Shown here: one piece after another, positions 1,242 to 63,245 of the stretch | Layout: each line of letters begins with the position of its first letter | How positions within the stretch are numbered: position 1 is the stretch's first letter | Sequence record: PZ452578.1 | Direction: 5' to 3' (one strand) | Source: a phage | Length of the DNA stretch: 64,000 bases | Translations under genes and position numbers: made by a program | Notes under the pieces: generated by a model | Database searches by the model: none | The model's input: the letters and a program-made list of their open reading frames with translations, nothing else | Told to the model about the DNA's origin: nothing

Positions 1242-1282
1242 TTTCTAATCTCCGTAATTCTGTATCAGCAGTTGATAGTTGT

Positions 1283-1325
1283 ATAGTACCACAGTATGCT
1301 TTGGTTGTAAACCGTTTTGTGAAAA
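1283..1325 (-). promoter_or_regulatory. T4-type early promoter (GTTTAC -35, 17-bp spacer, TGgTACTAT -10, A/T-rich UP region) with conserved leader, upstream of motA
   Basis: Plus strand shows atagta at 1283-1288 and gtaaac at 1307-1312 (reverse complement of -10/-35); member of repeated promoter-leader family. Confidence 0.7.
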
Positions 1326-1335
1326 AAAATTTTTG

Positions 1336-4242: not shown

Positions 4243-4461
4243 TCATTTTACACCGTTCCAAATTGTTTCAACCACAGATTTTAAACCATTTTGATGAATA
4301 TCCATTCCGACTACCGCCATCAAATAAATTCCAACTACAACTGAACCTAAGGCAAAAATCAGCATGAAAATGAATAAAGCCGGAAAAATATTATCGAAAA
4401 ACCATTCAATAAATGTAAAAGCACTGCGTTTACGCTTCATATTTTCCTCACATAAATCCAA
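4243..4461 (-). CDS. hypothetical membrane protein (72 aa)
   Basis: ORF track; hydrophobic core. Confidence 0.55.
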   Translation of the reverse strand: MDLCEENMKRKRSAFTFIEWFFDNIFPALFIFMLIFALGSVVVGIYLMAVVGMDIHQNGLKSVVETIWNGVK

Positions 4462-4561
4462 AGTAAACGTTTAATACATCAATCATTAAAACGATTGGGA
4501 ATATACTCAAAACTACTAGTATTATAACTACATTCCATATAGCTTTAACAATCTTTTTCAT
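4448..4561 (-). CDS. small membrane protein (37 aa)
   Basis: Internal ATG at 4561 preceded by GGAGG; track ORF N-terminal extension is read-through of the promoter/leader. Confidence 0.5.
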   Translation of the reverse strand: MKKIVKAIWNVVIILVVLSIFPIVLMIDVLNVYFGFM

Positions 4562-4589
4562 TTTCTGTTCCTCCGTAGTTGATAGTTGT

Positions 4590-4635
4590 ATAGTACCACA
4601 GAGGAACAGTCTTGTAAACAACTTTTTAAAAATAT
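4590..4635 (-). promoter_or_regulatory. T4-type early promoter with conserved leader (near-identical twin at 58298..58335)
   Basis: Plus atagta 4590-4595, gtaaac 4614-4619; 17-bp spacer; TGg extended -10. Confidence 0.7.
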
Positions 4636-4835
4636 TCGTAATAAATGTGAATACCAACTACTACCGCTGAAACCTGTGCAACCCACCACGCACAAGCAAT
4701 AAGTACAGAATTCAAAATTTTCATAATAACCTCATCACAAAAGTAAATGTTAAACAAATTAATGGAATACTAATTAACCAAACAAAACACCACCATAATG
4801 AACTCATAGTTCAATCTCAACGATTTTCATTTTAC

Positions 4836-5042
4836 TCAATAATCCGCTAAAAGATCGACGATTGTATCACGAAGACACTTATTCGCAATACGTTTAAGAG
4901 CAATTTCAGTTTCTGGAGCATTTTGAATAATCATTGAATTCAATTCAGCCTCAGCAAACTGAAGTTCTTTAACTAATTCAGCTTTATATTTTCCTTGCCC
5001 TTTCTTAGCTTTTGCTCGTTTTAATTCAGCTGTAGTAAACAT
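4836..5042 (-). CDS. hypothetical protein (68 aa)
   Basis: Internal ATG at 5042 with GGAG RBS; upstream part of track ORF is promoter/leader read-through. Confidence 0.6.
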   Translation of the reverse strand: MFTTAELKRAKAKKGQGKYKAELVKELQFAEAELNSMIIQNAPETEIALKRIANKCLRDTIVDLLADY

Positions 5043-5076
5043 TTTATTCTCCAAATCCGTATCAGTTGATAATTGT

Positions 5077-5125
5077 ATATTACCACAGTCCTTGTGGTAT
5101 GTAAACCGTTTTGTGAAAAAATTTT
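5077..5125 (-). promoter_or_regulatory. T4-type early promoter with conserved leader
   Basis: Plus atatta 5077-5082, gtaaac 5101-5106; dyad ccaca-N5-tgtgg in spacer. Confidence 0.7.
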
Positions 5126-5683
5126 TTAAATGGAAAGATACCATCCATTGTAGTTGCTTTTTCTTACAACCTTACGAAGGTCTTCTCTATCACCGATGAA
5201 TTTCGGAGTGTACTGGATGACACCTGGATGAATTTCTTTAGTGTTGAATATAATTATACAGTCAGCGACTTGATGATTTAGAATGGGCCCTAGATTTATT
5301 CCAGAACCATATGGATATTCTCCGCTGCATCCGGTTGTTACCGAAATCCATCGTGAGTCAGTTTGATGTGTTTTGACTTCTACACGAAGCCCACAGTATT
5401 TTGGATGCGCCAATACATCCCATGCATATGTGTACGGATCATCGACATCTTCTTGACCTTTATTAACATACCCGCTTAACCAATCTGCTACAAAAAACTC
5501 TGCGTACACAGCGATACGACATCTTTCGATAACTTCTGCCTTATCCTGGTTCGGGTTTTGTTTTAAAGAGTATCTTGCTGTATCAGCAATTTTGACTTTC
5601 ATTTCACTAGTCAAGTCACTGTTCGATAGGGTAAATGTCGGAATCTGAAATAGTCTCTGTAGCCCCGGATTCGTTTTCTGCAT
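5126..5683 (-). CDS. denB: DenB endonuclease IV
   Basis: ORF track 185 aa; position between ndd and rIIB and length match T4 denB. Confidence 0.8.
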   Translation of the reverse strand: MQKTNPGLQRLFQIPTFTLSNSDLTSEMKVKIADTARYSLKQNPNQDKAEVIERCRIAVYAEFFVADWLSGYVNKGQEDVDDPYTYAWDVLAHPKYCGLRVEVKTHQTDSRWISVTTGCSGEYPYGSGINLGPILNHQVADCIIIFNTKEIHPGVIQYTPKFIGDREDLRKVVRKSNYNGWYLSI

Positions 5684-5739: not shown

Positions 5740-5765
5740 AAAACAAAAGGGCCGAAGCCCTTATT
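5740..5765 (-). terminator. Intrinsic terminator, CUUCGG hairpin followed by U-rich tract
   Basis: aagggc-cgaa-gccctt inverted repeat 5747-5762. Confidence 0.6.
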
Positions 5766-5974: not shown

Positions 5975-5990
5975 AAGGGCCGAAGCCCTT
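5975..5990 (-). other. CUUCGG RNA hairpin at rIIB 3' end
   Basis: aagggccgaagccctt inverted repeat. Confidence 0.5.
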
Positions 5991-14212: not shown

Positions 14213-14713
14213 TTATCTCATTTCAATAAAATCTACGAGTTCAGCATGCGATTTGCGGAACATTACTTGATGCCCACCAATGATAACTTCATCTTCAGGA
14301 ACTTCGTATACAGCGAGATAAAATCCTTTAGAAGATAATTCTTCCCGCTCTTCTCGTGTGAACCATCTCATCATATCATATTCGCTAGCGAAACCAAAAT
14401 GATAAAGAGCTATAAACCATCCTGGAATATGATATTCTACTCCAACATAATCTTTCTTGAACTTAGTATTAATTACTATATTAGCGTTTTTAACTAATAG
14501 TTTATCTTCGTGTGGTAAAGGAATTCTTTTATTATTATCGCTATGATGCATAAAATTAGGTCTGTCATAACCTACGTGTAATAGCCACTCTTCGCTCCAT
14601 GAATCTATTATACTTCTATACGGCGTTATTTGAACACAAAGATTTCGACGTATTGTTATAGCATCTTCATAATTAAGAATACTAAACGATGATTCAACAC
14701 GATAAATTTTCAT
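14213..14713 (-). CDS. hypothetical protein (166 aa)
   Basis: ORF track. Confidence 0.6.
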   Translation of the reverse strand: MKIYRVESSFSILNYEDAITIRRNLCVQITPYRSIIDSWSEEWLLHVGYDRPNFMHHSDNNKRIPLPHEDKLLVKNANIVINTKFKKDYVGVEYHIPGWFIALYHFGFASEYDMMRWFTREEREELSSKGFYLAVYEVPEDEVIIGGHQVMFRKSHAELVDFIEMR

Positions 14714-14742
14714 TTTTATTATCCTCAGTAGCTATGGTGTTA

Positions 14743-14780
14743 TAATACCATAACTAACCGAGGAAGTAAACAACTTTTTA
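14743..14780 (-). promoter_or_regulatory. T4-type early promoter (GTTTAC / TGgTATTAT)
   Basis: Plus ataata 14743-14748, gtaaac 14767-14772. Confidence 0.65.
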
Positions 14781-18693: not shown

Positions 18694-19296
18694 TTATAGA
18701 TTAAATCCTTCAAAATCAAGAGTATAGATAGTGTATGTTGAATACTTTTTGTACTCATATCTATCTGCAATTCTAAATACACTTCCAGCTGGTATCATTA
18801 CTTCTTGTTCATCTGAAACTAATTCCATATTACGATAACGATGGCTATCCGGAAACTTAAAGTTTGGATTGTATTCTTTACAGCGTAGAGCTTTTATAGC
18901 ATACTCCTGGAAATTGAATACCATAGGAGCTTTGAATTCAAAAATAACTTGTGTGTTATACTCTAAACCGGAAGCAAAATGTAGAGCTATATTTTTATCA
19001 TATGAAGCTGATACTACTTTATCAAATGTAATAATATCAATTCCTTGATTTAATATTTGTTTAGTCTCAACTGGAACACCTCTCCAAAGAGGTTTATCGT
19101 TTGGAACCAAACGAGATTTGATTATTTCATTTAACCAAGTATGGTCATCTGGTTTGTTGGTAATACAATGAATTAAAAGTTCAATTTCAGATAAATTAAA
19201 CCCTTCAGAAAGTAATTCTTCACGAATAGAAGCACGCACCGATGCATCCATTGATTTTATTTTAAAATCTTTTAGTTGCATTACTGAGTATTTCAT
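18694..19296 (-). CDS. modA: ModA ADP-ribosyltransferase
   Basis: ORF track 200 aa; matches T4 ModA length and position. Confidence 0.8.
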   Translation of the reverse strand: MKYSVMQLKDFKIKSMDASVRASIREELLSEGFNLSEIELLIHCITNKPDDHTWLNEIIKSRLVPNDKPLWRGVPVETKQILNQGIDIITFDKVVSASYDKNIALHFASGLEYNTQVIFEFKAPMVFNFQEYAIKALRCKEYNPNFKFPDSHRYRNMELVSDEQEVMIPAGSVFRIADRYEYKKYSTYTIYTLDFEGFNL

Positions 19297-19916
19297 TCAA
19301 CTACCTCAATATCATAAACTTTAAATGTTCCAAATGAATCGTGTAATTTTTCTTTTGAAATAGAAGTTATTTTATACTTTCCAATTGGAATCATCCATTC
19401 TTGTTCATGCACAATCATCATTAAGTTATCAGTACGCTCTGAATCTAATCCATCAGTATCTTCATACGTGTACTTAAACTCAGTATTAGGAGAAGAAAGT
19501 ATAATATCGCTGATATGGTCAGAGTAATTAAAAGCTTTATCAGTTTTTAAACGAAATATTGTTTCAGTGAAATATTCAGCATAAGAAAAAGAACACGCTG
19601 TATGCAAACTAGTAGTAAATGAATCTACCCTGTTCGTTGAAAACACTTCTCCAACCTGTAAATCTTTAATAAGTTCTTTTGTCGATTTTGATATACCACG
19701 ATATAACTGATATGGCGATTTAGTTAAATGCTTTTTAATGATTTCATTTAAATGCTTATGAAGAGCTTCATTCTTTTTAGCTTCCATACATTGCCAAAGA
19801 ACAGACTGTTCAAAGTCAGTAAATTTTTCACAGACCTTTTTATACATATCATATTGAAAATCAACGCTTTCAGCTTTTATAGATAACTGTTCAACATCTG
19901 CAGGATTAATAATCAT
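19293..19916 (-). CDS. modB: ModB ADP-ribosyltransferase
   Basis: ORF track 207 aa; matches T4 ModB length; overlaps modA start. Confidence 0.8.
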   Translation of the reverse strand: MIINPADVEQLSIKAESVDFQYDMYKKVCEKFTDFEQSVLWQCMEAKKNEALHKHLNEIIKKHLTKSPYQLYRGISKSTKELIKDLQVGEVFSTNRVDSFTTSLHTACSFSYAEYFTETIFRLKTDKAFNYSDHISDIILSSPNTEFKYTYEDTDGLDSERTDNLMMIVHEQEWMIPIGKYKITSISKEKLHDSFGTFKVYDIEVVE

Positions 19917-19942
19917 GATAGCCTCCGTATACTTCAGAAGCT

Positions 19943-19980
19943 ATCATATCATCGTTAGAAAGGAAAGTAAACAACTTTTT
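19943..19980 (-). promoter_or_regulatory. T4-type early promoter (GTTTAC / TGaTATGAT) for modB-modA
   Basis: Plus atcata 19943-19948, gtaaac 19967-19972. Confidence 0.65.
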
Positions 19981-26539: not shown

Positions 26540-26568
26540 AACAATCTCCTCATTTAACCAACAAGACT

Positions 26569-26605
26569 ACTATACCATAGTCTCGTCAGCTTGTAAACTA
26601 AAATT
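26569..26605 (-). promoter_or_regulatory. T4-type early promoter (GTTTAC / TGgTATAGT) overlapping gene 41 3' end
   Basis: Plus actata 26569-26574, gtaaac 26593-26598. Confidence 0.6.
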
Positions 26606-31621: not shown

Positions 31622-32002
31622 TCACTTAGTCAAATTTTTTACACATGAATTATAAGAATTCACTACATACTCCATCGGAGCATTTTTACCAGTACGCCAT
31701 TGGTAATTATTAGCCCAATTAGCCCAAATTTCGGCGCAGTAGTTTTCAATTTTTTCTTCGCGTGTAATTACATCAGAATTACGATATGCTTGAGCAGATT
31801 CATCTGGACGAATAGCCTCGTCAAAATTCGCCTGCATTTGTTCTACTGTCTGTTTTGGAGCTTCTTTATAACACTTGACATTAGGATTATAAAACTTGCT
31901 TGAACAGTTTACAATTTTTCCTACATCAGACTGATTTACTACCGGTCCTTGAGCTACACAACCAGTAAGACCTAATGCAATAACTAAAATAGCGATTTTC
32001 AT
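31622..32002 (-). CDS. putative lipoprotein (126 aa; LTGC lipobox)
   Basis: ATG at 32002 with GGAG RBS; track start is a TTG in the leader. Confidence 0.65.
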   Translation of the reverse strand: MKIAILVIALGLTGCVAQGPVVNQSDVGKIVNCSSKFYNPNVKCYKEAPKQTVEQMQANFDEAIRPDESAQAYRNSDVITREEKIENYCAEIWANWANNYQWRTGKNAPMEYVVNSYNSCVKNLTK

Positions 32003-32036
32003 TTCATTCTCCAAATCCGTATTAGTTGATAGTTGT

Positions 32037-32085
32037 ATAGTACCATGGAAGAACAGTCTTGTAAACAGTTTTGTGAAAAATTTTT
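32037..32085 (-). promoter_or_regulatory. T4-type early promoter with conserved leader
   Basis: Plus atagta 32037-32042, gtaaac 32061-32066. Confidence 0.7.
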
Positions 32086-34938: not shown

Positions 34939-34955
34939 AGGGGCCGAAGCCCCTT
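34939..34955 (-). other. CUUCGG RNA hairpin
   Basis: aaggggc-cgaa-gcccctt inverted repeat. Confidence 0.5.
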
Positions 34956-37107: not shown

Positions 37108-37126
37108 AAAGGGCCGAAGCCCTTTA
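37108..37126 (-). other. CUUCGG RNA hairpin between genes 45 and 44
   Basis: aaagggc-cgaa-gcccttt inverted repeat. Confidence 0.5.
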
Positions 37127-43133: not shown

Positions 43134-43150
43134 AAGGGCCGAAGCCCTTT
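43133..43150 (-). other. CUUCGG RNA hairpin at alpha-gt 3' end
   Basis: aaagggc-cgaa-gcccttt inverted repeat. Confidence 0.5.
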
Positions 43151-46761: not shown

Positions 46762-46786
46762 TATCCAAAAAGGGCCGAAGCCCTTA
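46762..46786 (-). terminator. Intrinsic terminator (CUUCGG hairpin + UUUUU)
   Basis: aaagggc-cgaa-gccctt with A-run 46767-46771 on plus. Confidence 0.65.
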
Positions 46787-57741: not shown

Positions 57742-58269
57742 TTATGCGAGTACCGTCTTTAACCGTTCTTCAAACTTCCGAAGAGTATTCTGGCGTTCAG
57801 CTCTTTGCTTTTTGTAAGTTTCAATACGCTCTGAAATGAGAGTGTATCGTTCATTTACTGATTCTTTCATAAAATCAGGAATTTCACGAGAAGCTTTAAT
57901 CTCGTCAAATTTATCAATAACAGCTTGCTCTTCAGCAATTAAGTTATCATACATCAAAATATCTTTCTTGATGAACTCAATATCTTCTTGAGTTACACGA
58001 GATAACTTAGATGCTTTATCCTTTTTGTACTGTTCGTTAGTATCACGAGACCAGTGTAATGCACGATTTTTATTCGTATTTTTGTAAATTTCTACAATAC
58101 CAATCTCATCAATAATAACGATCCAATTCCAACGGGATTTGTAAATCTGCCCTCCATCAACCGTAATTTCACCTCCGATTGAGATGTCATTAAAGAACTT
58201 GCTTTGTGCTTCTGATTTAAATTTACCATCGTTGTAATTTACCAGGTTGAAAATATCTTTAGCGTTCAT
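57742..58269 (-). CDS. hypothetical protein (175 aa)
   Basis: ATG at 58269 with GGAGG RBS; track extension is promoter read-through. Confidence 0.65.
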   Translation of the reverse strand: MNAKDIFNLVNYNDGKFKSEAQSKFFNDISIGGEITVDGGQIYKSRWNWIVIIDEIGIVEIYKNTNKNRALHWSRDTNEQYKKDKASKLSRVTQEDIEFIKKDILMYDNLIAEEQAVIDKFDEIKASREIPDFMKESVNERYTLISERIETYKKQRAERQNTLRKFEERLKTVLA

Positions 58270-58297
58270 TTTGTGTTCCTCCGTAGTTGATAGTTGT

Positions 58298-58335
58298 ATA
58301 GTACCACAGAGGAACGGTCTTGTAAACAACTAAAA
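58298..58335 (-). promoter_or_regulatory. T4-type early promoter with conserved leader (twin of 4590..4635)
   Basis: Plus atagta 58298-58303, gtaaac 58322-58327. Confidence 0.7.
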
Positions 58336-58644
58336 GAAACTTCTTTCACAATTTTTTCCACTGAACCAAGCGCTCACTGCTTTCTTAGTCTCAGGAGCAG
58401 TGTTATCCATAAACCATTCAAAGGCAGCCTTTTTATGATTCTGGAGGGCTTCTCGGGCTTTAATCTGCTCACGGTCTATTAACACTAACATATGAGCCTT
58501 TCTTGTCACCATGGGCTTCTTATGATTTTTTGAATACTCCCAATCATTTGTCCATCGCATCGTTGTTGCGAATTGAAGTACAGCTTCTTTAATTTTAGTT
58601 TCGTAAATTTCACGAGCCTTTGAGTATAACATCATTACCTCCAT
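58330..58644 (-). CDS. hypothetical protein (104 aa)
   Basis: ORF track. Confidence 0.6.
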   Translation of the reverse strand: MEVMMLYSKAREIYETKIKEAVLQFATTMRWTNDWEYSKNHKKPMVTRKAHMLVLIDREQIKAREALQNHKKAAFEWFMDNTAPETKKAVSAWFSGKNCERSFF

Positions 58645-58714: not shown

Positions 58715-59434
58715 TTACGATTCTTCTAAATGTCTTTTCTGAAAAGTTGATACCATACTACGATAAGGTTCATTTGGATACCCGTGTTTTATAGCTTCCT
58801 TTGTAAATTTTCTCCATCCGTATTTAGTTTCTTTCCAAAGCTCGAATAATTCATCTTCATACTGCCATATAGTTAAATGAGAACGCTTTGCAGCTTTAAT
58901 TCCATTAATGTGCTTTTCTTTTACTGTAGGATTGCTTAGTGTCTTTTTAATAATATTACTAACTTTTCTAACAAAAGCTGGGTCCTTATATCGTTGTGAA
59001 GTTTTTATTGAAGTGTTTAATTTAGCTTCCGGCGTGGATGTGACCTCTTTCATCTTTTTCTTCATATGCTCTATATGATTAGGATTTTTCCATAAATTTA
59101 TAGAATGCTTTTTACATTTTATCCTAGTTTCATCTGCAACCTTTCCTCCTTCACCCCCATATGACAGGTTAACGCAGTTTTTTCCATATTTCAATTTACC
59201 TGCCATGATATATAATATTTCGGCTTGTACCATTTTATCATAATTATCAAAAACTTCTAAAACCGTTTTTGATAATATATGGTCATTTGACACTTTTACA
59301 CGTTCTATATAATTTCCACTACCAACATACGAATCATTGATGTTATTAGTTATATGTCGACCATAATAGTATTTCTTAATACCTGTCTTTAAATTTAATA
59401 TTTCAGTTTTATAGATAGTAAAATATTTTTTCAT
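58715..59434 (-). CDS. putative GIY-YIG-family homing endonuclease (239 aa)
   Basis: ORF track; N-terminal TIYK...KYYYG pattern and Lys-rich C-terminal repeats; weaker match than the 42349 gene. Confidence 0.5.
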   Translation of the reverse strand: MKKYFTIYKTEILNLKTGIKKYYYGRHITNNINDSYVGSGNYIERVKVSNDHILSKTVLEVFDNYDKMVQAEILYIMAGKLKYGKNCVNLSYGGEGGKVADETRIKCKKHSINLWKNPNHIEHMKKKMKEVTSTPEAKLNTSIKTSQRYKDPAFVRKVSNIIKKTLSNPTVKEKHINGIKAAKRSHLTIWQYEDELFELWKETKYGWRKFTKEAIKHGYPNEPYRSMVSTFQKRHLEES

Positions 59435-60399
59435 TTTAATAATACCGTTTCAGCGATTTCTTCCCAACCGTTTTTGTCGGTCATAATAAAGTCAGCAAGA
59501 TAAAGAGCAGTACGCAGTGAAACATTACGTAAACGATTAACATTGACTTTCATCCATGATAATGCTTTATAAGTTTCTTCATCAGAAAGACCGCGTTTTT
59601 GCATCATGTCAGTTGAAAGAATAACATCTTCAACCCTGACCATAATTTCTTCATTAGTGTGAACACCCAAATCTAAATAAACTGAGCGGGACACTAATGC
59701 TTGTAAATGTGGAGCAAGTTTAGTACCACGGTCTAATTCACGGTCAATGTCAACGTTTGTGATAAAAACAATTGTTCCTTTAAATTCAAACTCACGGTCA
59801 ATGCCTTTTTCTTCTAAGTAAGAAGATGCAGTGCTCCAGCAGACTTTACGGGTCTCTCCAGTGTCCAGAGCAGCTTTCAGAAGATTAAGAATGTCCATAT
59901 CAGAGAAAACATCCACATCATCAATCAAAAGGACAGAATTCTCTTCACGATTATTCCAAAGCTGTTCATAAAGACCGATACCAGAGATTTTACCATTAAT
60001 GCTTTTATACTCAATGTATCCAATATCATTTGCTTTATTTAAAGCTTTATCTAAAGAATACGTTTTACCAATGCCTGCCGCACCAGAGATAATTAATGAA
60101 CGAATGTTTCCGTTAATAATACCATTCGTCATCATTCCCATAACATTAAATCTTTTATTAATGCGGGTTTTCATATCTTCATATGATTCTTTAACTTCTT
60201 CAACTTTTACACCATCATATGAAATGTCTGATTTGTAAACCCAAACACCGCGACGCTTACCGTCAATTTCAACAAAAACTTTACCATCTCCTTGTGCATC
60301 TACCGGAGCATTATCAGGGAACCACTCACCTAAGAGTTCAAAAGTTCCAGAGATTTCTTTACCGAAGTAGATACCCTTATTGATAGTTACAGTTTTCAT
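59431..60399 (-). CDS. P-loop NTPase (AAA+-like), 323 aa
   Basis: ATG at 60399 with GGAG RBS; Walker A GAAGIGKT, Walker B VLLIDDVD. Confidence 0.7.
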   Translation of the reverse strand: MKTVTINKGIYFGKEISGTFELLGEWFPDNAPVDAQGDGKVFVEIDGKRRGVWVYKSDISYDGVKVEEVKESYEDMKTRINKRFNVMGMMTNGIINGNIRSLIISGAAGIGKTYSLDKALNKANDIGYIEYKSINGKISGIGLYEQLWNNREENSVLLIDDVDVFSDMDILNLLKAALDTGETRKVCWSTASSYLEEKGIDREFEFKGTIVFITNVDIDRELDRGTKLAPHLQALVSRSVYLDLGVHTNEEIMVRVEDVILSTDMMQKRGLSDEETYKALSWMKVNVNRLRNVSLRTALYLADFIMTDKNGWEEIAETVLLK

Positions 60400-60436
60400 T
60401 TTATTCTCCAAATCTGTATCAGTAGTTGATAGTTGT

Positions 60437-60480
60437 ATAGTACCATAAAGCTTTATGCTTGTAAACAGTTTTGTGAAAAA
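60437..60480 (-). promoter_or_regulatory. T4-type early promoter with conserved leader
   Basis: Plus atagta 60437-60442, gtaaac 60461-60466. Confidence 0.7.
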
Positions 60481-60484
60481 ATTT

Positions 60485-60514
60485 TGAAATAAAAAGGGAG
60501 CCCGAAGGCTCCCT
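60485..60514 (-). terminator. Intrinsic terminator (GGGAGCC-UUCG-GGCUCCC + U-run)
   Basis: Inverted repeat 60496-60513 with A-run 60491-60495 on plus. Confidence 0.7.
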
Positions 60515-63075: not shown

Positions 63076-63210
63076 AATTACATACTCCTTTGAATAATAT
63101 CAATAATGTTGTTCACCAGATTATAAGTAAACATTGGGTAATTATATTGAATCATTACATACACAACAAACAAAACTTTCATTCTCTTCTCCTTGACAGT
63201 TGACAAGATT

Positions 63211-63245
63211 ACTATACCATAACCTTGCCAACTTGTAAACCGTTA
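63211..63245 (-). promoter_or_regulatory. T4-type early promoter (GTTTAC / TGgTATAGT)
   Basis: Plus actata 63211-63216, gtaaac 63235-63240. Confidence 0.6.

Follow-up and report, generated by a model that had tools for sequence, protein, structure and literature searches.

Near-identical PeSL-type early-promoter cassettes in a T4-like phage: probable maintenance by gene conversion, with a predicted hairpin between promoter spacer and Shine-Dalgarno sequence

The stretch of Tequatrovirus (T4-like phage) DNA analyzed here (PZ452578.1; 64,000 nt, hereafter the window, within which all cassette coordinates count) is approximately 97% identical to the genomes of Escherichia phage BF15, the RB3 group, T2, T6, and other Tequatrovirus members. 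It contains two almost identical early-promoter cassettes, designated A and B, which lie 54 kb apart on the minus strand (Table 1). In annotated relatives, copy A separates ndd.5 from ndd.4, and copy B separates nrdC.9 from nrdC.8. The products of ndd.4 and nrdC.8 are unrelated to each other, as are the genes flanking the two copies, and no gene accompanies the cassette. In the arrangement proposed here, each cassette fills the gap between its neighbors and would supply a strong host sigma-70 promoter, a leader of ~24 nt, a GGAGG Shine-Dalgarno (SD) sequence, and a start codon, so that copy A would serve ndd.4 and copy B would serve nrdC.8.

The first-pass annotation of this DNA had pointed to a nearly identical pair of promoter, leader, and ribosome binding site cassettes at these positions. 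Alignment of the two loci bears this out, with the coordinates shifted by a few bases and the strand being minus. The blocks agree at 65 of 67 bases, their common sequence on the minus strand being AGTTGTTTACAAGAC[T/C]GTTCCTCTGTGGTACTATACAACTATCAACTACGGAGGAACA[G/C]AAAATGAA. Identity falls to 28% in the 75 bases upstream and to 29% in the 76 bases downstream, i.e., to the random level; thus, the edges of the block are sharp. A 39-mer of the common core is found at these two places of the window and nowhere else in it, and 100 dinucleotide-preserving shuffles contained no occurrence. The match is not limited to the -35 and -10 consensus positions but spans the -35 box, the full 17-nt spacer, the TGn, the -10 box, the discriminator, the leader, the SD sequence, and the ATG, as had been claimed.

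Judged by their sequence anatomy, both copies are T4 early promoters of the sigma-70 type joined to a leader, a ribosome binding site, and a start codon, in agreement with the earlier reading. Each consists of GTTTACA-N17-(TGG)TACTAT, a short leader, GGAGG, 8 nt, and ATG. The sequence TATAAATA is absent from both cassettes, and the internal promoter is of the sigma-70 early type with a -35 box. We infer that transcription starts near the A at 4583 in copy A and near 58291 in copy B. The bases ACAACT, previously regarded as leader, lie upstream of this position and are probably the discriminator rather than part of the transcript. AT-rich stretches are present 5′ of the -35 box (ATTACGAATATTTTTAAAAAG in A and GAAAAAATTGTGAAAGAAGTTTCTTTTAG in B), in both cases inside the upstream coding sequence.

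Table 1 Cassettes, predicted signals, and associated genes in the window
Feature	Position	Strand	Description
Cassette A	4557..4623	minus	starts 3 nt past the ndd.5 stop (TAA, 4628-4626); ends at ATGAA of ndd.4
Predicted promoter A	4590..4618	minus	-35 TTTACA 4618-4613; 17-nt spacer; TGG 4598-4596; -10 TACTAT 4595-4590
Predicted RNA hairpin A	4565..4609	minus	5′ arm CUGUUCCUCUGUGGU 4609-4595; 15-nt loop; 3′ arm ACUACGGAGGAACAG 4579-4565 with GGAGG 4574-4570
Cassette B	58265..58331	minus	covers the final 2 nt of the nrdC.9 stop (TAG, 58332-58330); ends at ATGAA of nrdC.8
Predicted promoter B	58298..58326	minus	-35 TTTACA 58326-58321; 17-nt spacer; TGG; -10 TACTAT 58303-58298
Predicted RNA hairpin B	58275..58315	minus	13 pairs; SD GGAGG 58282-58278
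ndd.5	4626..4724	minus	32 aa; upstream of cassette A
ndd.4	4448..4561	minus	37-aa predicted membrane peptide, function unknown; downstream of cassette A; phrog_3098
nrdC.9 (DUF7203)	58330..58644	minus	3′ end provides the region upstream of cassette B
nrdC.8	57742..58269	minus	175 aa, function unknown; downstream of cassette B; phrog_2274
Locus C, imm.1 promoter cassette	32000..32072	minus	-35, -10, and leader ACAACTATCAACTA of A/B; related spacer agactgttcttccatgg; different SD module GGAGAATGAAATG
Family member before ORF269-like gene	5040..5127	minus	UP module AAAATTTTTTCACAAAAC; SD module GGAGAATAAAATG
Family member 3′ of UUCG-loop terminator	60397..60487	minus	likely source of read-through into cassette B
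Family member with the same -10 box and leader	1250..1333	minus	
Cassette before 166-aa ORF (14213-14713)	14213-14770	minus	predicted arm in spacer; SD buried
Cassette before modB	19293-19971	minus	predicted arm over spacer end and -10 box; SD buried
AAGGGCCGAAGCCCTT-type hairpins	5747-5762, 5975-5990, 34940-34955, 37109-37124, 43134-43149, 46770-46785, 60495-60514		

Cassettes A and B are instances of a class that is already known, the PeSL or T4 early-promoter cassettes, the ndd.4/.5 locus included. PeSLs were defined in phages RB49 and phi1 as an upstream stop codon, an AT-rich region, a sigma-70 promoter, a stem-loop, an SD sequence, and an ATG, with the stem-loop located mostly between -35 and -10 or overlapping -10 and with G-T pairs allowed (PMC2839356). 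Promoter and attenuator activities of RB49/phi1 PeSLs and recombination between copies have been shown (Arbiol et al. 2010, PMC2839356), and PeSL mini-circles were detected in these phages. For the PeSLs of T4 and PST, the promoter consensus is TTTACW-N17-TAYWAT, and the ndd.4/.5 locus serves to illustrate exchange mediated by PeSLs (Comeau et al. 2014, PMC4122927). Both A and B span the distance from stop codon to ATG and carry AT-rich sequence upstream of the -35 box. Their promoter, TTTACA-N17-TACTAT with TGG before the -10 box, fits the consensus; a stable predicted stem of 13–15 bp (-23 kcal/mol, z of about -5) encloses the -10 box; and the SD sequence and start codon stand at the 3′ end (GGAGG, 8 nt, ATG). 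The published PeSLs recur in hyperplastic regions near indels; likewise, the window holds 17 cassettes in 64 kb, with gain and loss of neighboring genes. The published PeSLs also recombine with other copies, and the chimeric and shared haplotypes at A, B, and imm.1 support a probable exchange here.

There are also differences. The 3′ stem arm of A and B is the SD sequence itself, and the stem encloses the -10 box, unlike the PST PeSL stem-loops, which were published as lying just upstream of the promoter. Since A and B are 54 kb apart, they would have to exchange sequence without crossover, and the mini-circle excision published for PeSLs cannot be the route. Translation and gene conversion are not discussed in the PeSL papers (PMC2839356, PMC4122927). 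T4 early promoters as a class were described as very strong “uber” UP/-35/TGn/-10 promoters with additional consensus beyond these elements (Hinton 2010, PMC2988021). Cassettes A and B resemble them in the GTTTACA, the 17-nt spacer, the TGn, the TAnnAT -10 box, and the AT-rich upstream region. In contrast to the class, complete identity of spacer and leader is peculiar to the A/B pair, and the UP region, which lies within the upstream coding sequences, is not common to the two copies (28% identity). The pair is, in our opinion, a worked example of how T4-like phages maintain small, portable units of expression, through which every accessory gene has a promoter and a ribosome site to itself, and which double as homology patches for gene shuffling. 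This is the published PeSL model, and in this respect the main result is a confirmation rather than a discovery. Two features we did not find in the PeSL papers or the T4 reviews (PMC2839356, PMC4122927, PMC2988021, PMC2988022, PMC3014915): a conversion network linking A, B, and imm.1, and a spacer acting as an anti-SD arm at early promoters.

The pair belongs to a larger family, a point that the first-pass annotation missed. A minus-strand scan of the window for a GTTTAC-type -35 box, a 17-nt spacer, and a TAnnnT -10 box returns ~17 cassettes, each with an SD sequence and an ATG in the 25–45 nt that follow. No two members of this family are as close as A and B (97% identity); the copy that comes next has 75% identity to A. 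For comparison across phages, A and B cassettes were gathered from T4, PST, PP01, RB32, UAB_60, five IMG/VR genomes, and several metagenome contigs. Every Tequatrovirus genome examined has a cassette at both loci; therefore, neither copy is a recent insertion. A 96-nt probe taken from copy A hit 505 phage records, most of them at two or three sites. In Mosigvirus, Dhakavirus, and Gaprivervirus, too, nrdC.8 is preceded by an orthologous promoter cassette.

The degree of identity between A and B differs from phage to phage, ranging from 1 to 9 differences in 63 bases within one genome (11 genomes). The B copy of T4 is identical to that of the window from the -35 box to the ATG. The A and B copies of T4 differ from each other at 9 of 63 positions, which cluster in the spacer (cttcc vs cctct), in the discriminator (taccc vs acaac), and beside the SD sequence; the flanks of both loci are still ~97% identical between T4 and the window. 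The alternative alleles cctct/cttcc/cctcc, TACTAT/TATTAT, acaac/taccc, and G/C before AAAATG segregate at both loci, and two complete 63-nt haplotypes occupy either A or B, depending on the genome. A B-type tract occupies the A locus in the window phage, in UAB_60, in a G8-like genome, and in OBRH01000009, and the A cassette of MAVG01000001 is a mosaic of two types. Moreover, the imm.1 promoter of UAB_60 is a chimeric third copy, equal to A from the -35 box through ATCAACTA and continuing with the GGAGAATGAAATG module; at the imm.1 locus of T4 and of the window the spacer is related but different. Allele sharing between loci, shared haplotypes, the variable A–B distance, and the chimeric imm.1 copy together indicate that short tracts have probably been converted among these cassettes recurrently and in both directions.

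The first-pass annotation had left the origin of the near-identity between recent duplication, gene conversion, and mobility. Gene conversion is the best supported of the three, in view of the shared alleles and haplotypes. Recent duplication is contradicted by the occupancy of both loci in T4, PST, and other Tequatrovirus phages and by the orthologous nrdC.8 cassette in three more genera. Mobility should be visible as novel junctions, which were sought by scanning IMG/VR with an exact 41-mer, with the SD half TATCAACTAYGGAGGAACA, and with the promoter half, and by scanning metagenome contigs with the SD half. In T4-like DNA of both collections, the SD half occurs only in the ndd.5>ndd.4 and nrdC.9>nrdC.8 contexts, and the remaining metagenome matches to it are unrelated chance matches. 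The restriction to two known contexts argues against a freely moving element. The A and B loci would thus be old and fixed in position, and ectopic homologous exchange would have produced the near-identity seen in the window phage. T4 recombination is able to exchange patches of ~50 bp, and the same process could give rise to chimeric cassettes and to the published modular shuffling.

A further feature of the pair concerns RNA folding. In RNA that includes the spacer, each cassette is predicted to form a strong hairpin (-23.2 kcal/mol in A and -23.9 kcal/mol in B; z = -5.0 and -5.3 vs shuffles). The 5′ arm consists of spacer, TGG, and the first T of the -10 box, the 3′ arm contains the SD sequence, and the 15-nt loop comprises the remaining -10 bases, the discriminator, and the predicted +1. 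The two basal pairs, which contain both A/B differences, are what separates the 15-bp stem of A from the 13-bp stem of B. The predicted probability that the SD sequence is unpaired is 0.00 in RNA with the spacer vs 0.76–0.80 in RNA from the predicted +1. Three or four substitutions in the A versions of T4 and PST leave the fold unchanged (-20.9 and -22.7 kcal/mol). Among 11 haplotypes, the 13 inner stem pairs are kept in all 11; four pairs vary, each by a wobble-compatible transition, and the A-to-G stem change of PST stands opposite U. Folding of the antisense strand is weaker (-11 to -16 kcal/mol, z -0.1 to -2.0; for A, -15.6 kcal/mol and z -2.0). The pairing needs G.U pairs, which are lost on the antisense strand, and this points to a structure formed at the RNA level by the mRNA strand. 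It is doubtful that spacer and leader are without function, as had been assumed, since both form arms of the predicted hairpin. An Rfam search of the window gave no match at the gathering score, only chance-level matches around A (E 0.3–0.7).

Hairpins that bury a ribosome binding site and enclose a promoter are known from T-even phages for I-TevI/II/III, segB, mobE, soc, e, 49, 25, and 26 (Edgell et al. 2010, PMC2988022; gene 49 is printed as “39” in this review). The known cases are, according to the review, “all late genes,” and the homing-endonuclease examples described in detail use late or middle promoters (PMC2988022). Cassettes A and B are similar to the I-TevI/e/soc type in that long upstream transcripts are predicted to fold over the SD sequence, and in that the loop contains the -10 box together with the predicted +1, so that the cassette's own transcript would be devoid of the 5′ arm. 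They differ from these late genes in having a sigma-70 immediate-early promoter instead of a late or middle one, and in using its spacer as the 5′ arm; here the arrangement is a prediction. An anti-SD hairpin at an early promoter is the one new lead of this analysis and seems undescribed.

Its functional reading would be as follows. The terminator scan predicts nothing on the way from the next promoters upstream (-35 at 5105 and 60465) to cassettes A and B, so read-through RNA is to be expected. Such RNA, begun at an upstream promoter, would form the hairpin of 13–15 bp over the -10 box and start site and bury the SD sequence, and ndd.4 or nrdC.8 would remain untranslated from it. RNA begun at the cassette's own promoter would have no 5′ arm and a free SD sequence; these short-leadered, open transcripts would be translated and then inactivated by RegB, with the A-rich stretch after GGAGG as a target of the RegB/S1 type. 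Translation of ndd.4 and nrdC.8 would in this way be tied to their own early promoters. Silencing of read-through by the A/B hairpin may be viewed as having a little less than an even chance. A somewhat more tentative generalization is that a subset of T-even immediate-early promoters (those of ndd.4, nrdC.8, modB, and the 166-aa open reading frame (ORF) at 14213-14713) employs its own spacer as an anti-SD arm, so that only the promoter's own RNA is translated while RNA from read-through or middle-mode extension stays silent. If true, this would extend the logic of a promoter inside a ribosome binding site hairpin, restricted in the review PMC2988022 to late genes, to early genes; it would explain why spacer and leader are conserved and move together in gene conversion; and it would mean that T4 early genes can be translationally insulated from upstream transcription, which gives a functional reason for the conservation of a supposedly “non-conserved” spacer.

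The generality of the hairpin can be assessed within the window and in other genera. Two other window cassettes, those preceding the 166-aa ORF and modB, are predicted to bury the SD sequence with an arm located upstream of the predicted start, although their sequences are unrelated to A and B (-23.7 and -20.8 kcal/mol, respectively; SD unpaired probability 0.00 in the long RNA vs ~0.65 in the short RNA). In two further minus-strand cassettes (-35 at 63239, 63200-63240; -35 at 26597, 26560-26598), stems of 15 bp enclose the -10 box and leave the SD sequence free; these are the classic PeSL stem-loop overlapping -10. Of the rest, several have only small intra-spacer stems and some have none. 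The promoter half of a window cassette pairs better with its own SD region than with the SD regions of other cassettes (p = 0.0003; 0.002 without paralogues), an excess driven by the few SD-burying cassettes. In the nrdC.8 cassette of Dhakavirus, an 11-bp stem (UCUCCAGUAG/CUACUGGAGG) buries the SD sequence by means of a different spacer sequence. Across Tequatrovirus, Dhakavirus, Mosigvirus, and Gaprivervirus, the conserved trait at nrdC.8 is the predicted PeSL stem-loop, i.e., a stem around the -10 box with its 5′ arm in the spacer; capture of the SD sequence is frequent among the variants without being the rule. A deep conservation of the modB anti-SD stem was also considered and abandoned, because orthologues outside Tequatrovirus are ~33% identical and are confounded with modA.

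Taken as a whole, A and B are best explained as PeSL-type early cassettes whose near-identity is kept by ectopic gene conversion and which carry a spacer/SD hairpin; we assign to this explanation a probability of roughly three in four. Several observations weigh against it. The anti-SD arrangement is found in only 4 of the 17 window cassettes. At nrdC.8, the stem surrounds the -10 box but does not reach the SD sequence in Mosigvirus (11 bp) or in Gaprivervirus (13 bp), and the A/B spacer also occurs without any hairpin, in the chimeric imm.1 cassette of UAB_60. Close relatives show no double-sided compensatory change, the 11 haplotypes offering one-sided wobble changes only. The position of the transcription start, the existence of read-through RNA, and translational silencing are all inferred. 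The conversion argument, for its part, draws on 11 genomes. Finally, the authors of the PeSL studies read the stem-loops as transcription attenuators or terminators (PMC2839356).

The last point leads to the most substantial alternative, which is that the stem-loop acts on transcription or RNA stability, by attenuating or terminating read-through or by protecting the 3′ end of the upstream mRNA, with an incidental overlap of the SD sequence. An RB49 PeSL stem-loop lowered lacZ expression as much as a strong terminator did (PMC2839356), the nrdC.8 stems of all four genera surround the -10 box but not always the SD sequence, and the 15-bp stems at 63239 and 26597 leave the SD free. Nevertheless, the A/B stem has a 15-nt loop. 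It also lacks a U-tract (AAAAUGAA follows it), and the terminator scan made no call there; an intrinsic terminator was rejected on these last two grounds. In addition, the 3′ arm in both Tequatrovirus and Dhakavirus is exactly the SD sequence, reached through different partner sequences. We consider this alternative unlikely overall, though deserving of attention. Action of the inverted repeat at the DNA level, as an operator at which a dimeric phage or host protein flanks the -10 box, e.g., during early-promoter shut-off, has the lowest probability of all. The arms of 13–15 bp are symmetric about -10 and +1, and the shut-off mechanism is incompletely understood (PMC3014915), but the pairing uses 2–4 G.U pairs, the antisense strand folds with z of only -0.1 to -2.0 vs -3.6 to -5.3 for the sense strand, and the arm sequences are wholly different between genera and between loci.

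The remaining alternatives bear on the near-identity itself. A recently duplicated or actively mobile element inserted twice, or the integration of a PeSL mini-circle, would account for the sharp block edges at stop codon and ATG, and mini-circles in RB49/phi1 as well as gene gain and loss beside cassettes in the ndd-denB region are consistent with it. We regard it as improbable, given that both loci are filled in all Tequatrovirus phages examined, T4 and PST among them, that the nrdC.8 cassette extends to three more genera, and that the SD half, in the T4-like DNA of IMG/VR and the metagenome contigs, is confined to two contexts with unrelated flanking genes, none of which travels along. Slightly more improbable still is that purifying selection acted convergently toward an optimal promoter, hairpin, and ribosome binding site, without exchange between loci. 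T4 early promoters do have consensus beyond -35, TGn, and -10 (PMC2988021), the SD sequence with its A-rich region would be a RegB/S1 target, and 30 of the 67 bases are under constraint from the stem. Such selection is opposed by the nine A–B differences that T4 tolerates, the chimeric third copy, the occurrence of acaac/taccc and TACTAT/TATTAT at both loci in different genomes, and the crossing of two whole haplotypes between loci.

The SD region merits separate comment. RegB cuts GGAG in early SD sequences followed by an A-rich stretch, with the consensus GGAGAAUAAAA (Durand et al. 2006, PMC1702504), and the RegB/S1 target includes a 7-nt A-rich stretch almost free of C after GGAG (PMC1702504). 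The GGAG of T4 nrdC.8, a site with the same sequence as copy B, is moderately cleaved by RegB in vivo, and ndd.4 is absent from the sites reported (PMC1702504); secondary structure protects from RegB (PMC3014915). The RegB-like stretches of the two copies (GGAGGAACAGA in A, GGAGGAACACA in B) are A-rich but contain C; this 3′ context, GAACA[G/C]A, departs from the consensus in that respect. An SD module common to three cassettes, GGATTTGGAGAATrAAATG (minus strand, 5040-5076, 32000-32036, and 60397-60433), is closer: GGAGAAUAAAA is matched exactly by the GGAGAATAAAATG module of the 5105 and 60465 cassettes and with one mismatch at 32065 (GGAGAATGAAATG), which suggests that this module may be conserved as a RegB site.

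The cassettes have consequences for annotation. ORFs with TTG starts (4448..4657 and 57742..58329, minus strand) run through cassettes A and B and end up sharing the peptide CGTIQLSTTEE, which had been called spurious in the first-pass annotation, correctly in our view. A true N-terminal extension was rejected, as these ORFs overlap the promoter and the peptides are the translated cassette; moreover, the annotations of PP01, RB32, and PST use the GGAGG-N8-ATG start. ORF callers thus run through such cassettes and produce false N-terminal extensions. In the 80-aa profile of PHROG 28140, ndd.4 matches only positions 44–80 (the last 37), which suggests that promoter-derived extensions have already entered protein family databases. 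A related case is ndd.4 of T4, which reads ACTATGGAGG vs ACTACGGAGG in other phages, a C-to-T change that makes an ATG in the SD region. The T4 record starts the gene at this new ATG (42 aa), and PP01 and PST at the conserved downstream ATG (37 aa); the annotated start of T4 ndd.4 is likely a mis-annotation.

Other members of the family in the window share modules with A and B to different degrees. The sequence TGGTACTATACAACTATCAACT is common to six cassettes, one with the variant TGGTAATATACAATTATCAACT (-35 at 60465, 58326, 32065, 5105, 4618, and 1311), and the upstream module AAAATTTTTTCACAAAAC is common to four. The window copy of locus C (imm.1) gave no hairpin on folding. An initial transcribed sequence, (C)TATCAACTAC, is kept in the nrdC.8 cassettes of Tequatrovirus, Mosigvirus, and Dhakavirus and in six window promoters; the hairpin accounts for its last five bases only.

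Changes in gene content are found next to both regions: gain and loss of ORF268/269 adjoins the 5105 cassette, and a seg-like gene is inserted near B. In the window, a 9-codon remnant ORF (4804-4830, minus strand; MKIVEIEL) is all that is left of PST ORF268, the deletion having fused ORF268's own ATGAAA to an internal ATGAAA. In T4, which lacks both ORF269 and ORF268, the cassette ATG is joined to the same internal ORF268 site. These losses are microhomology deletions beside the cassette start codon. The gene near B (58715-59434, minus strand; 239 aa) lies between nrdC.9 and nrdC.10, is absent from T4, and has no Pfam match at E <= 0.01; its RB32 counterpart is annotated as a seg-like site-specific DNA endonuclease. 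GC-rich hairpins with the plus-strand form AAGGGCCGAAGCCCTT, read on the minus strand as a UUCG tetraloop, recur in the window; T-runs follow them, and they look like typical T4 intrinsic terminators, some of them apparently bidirectional.

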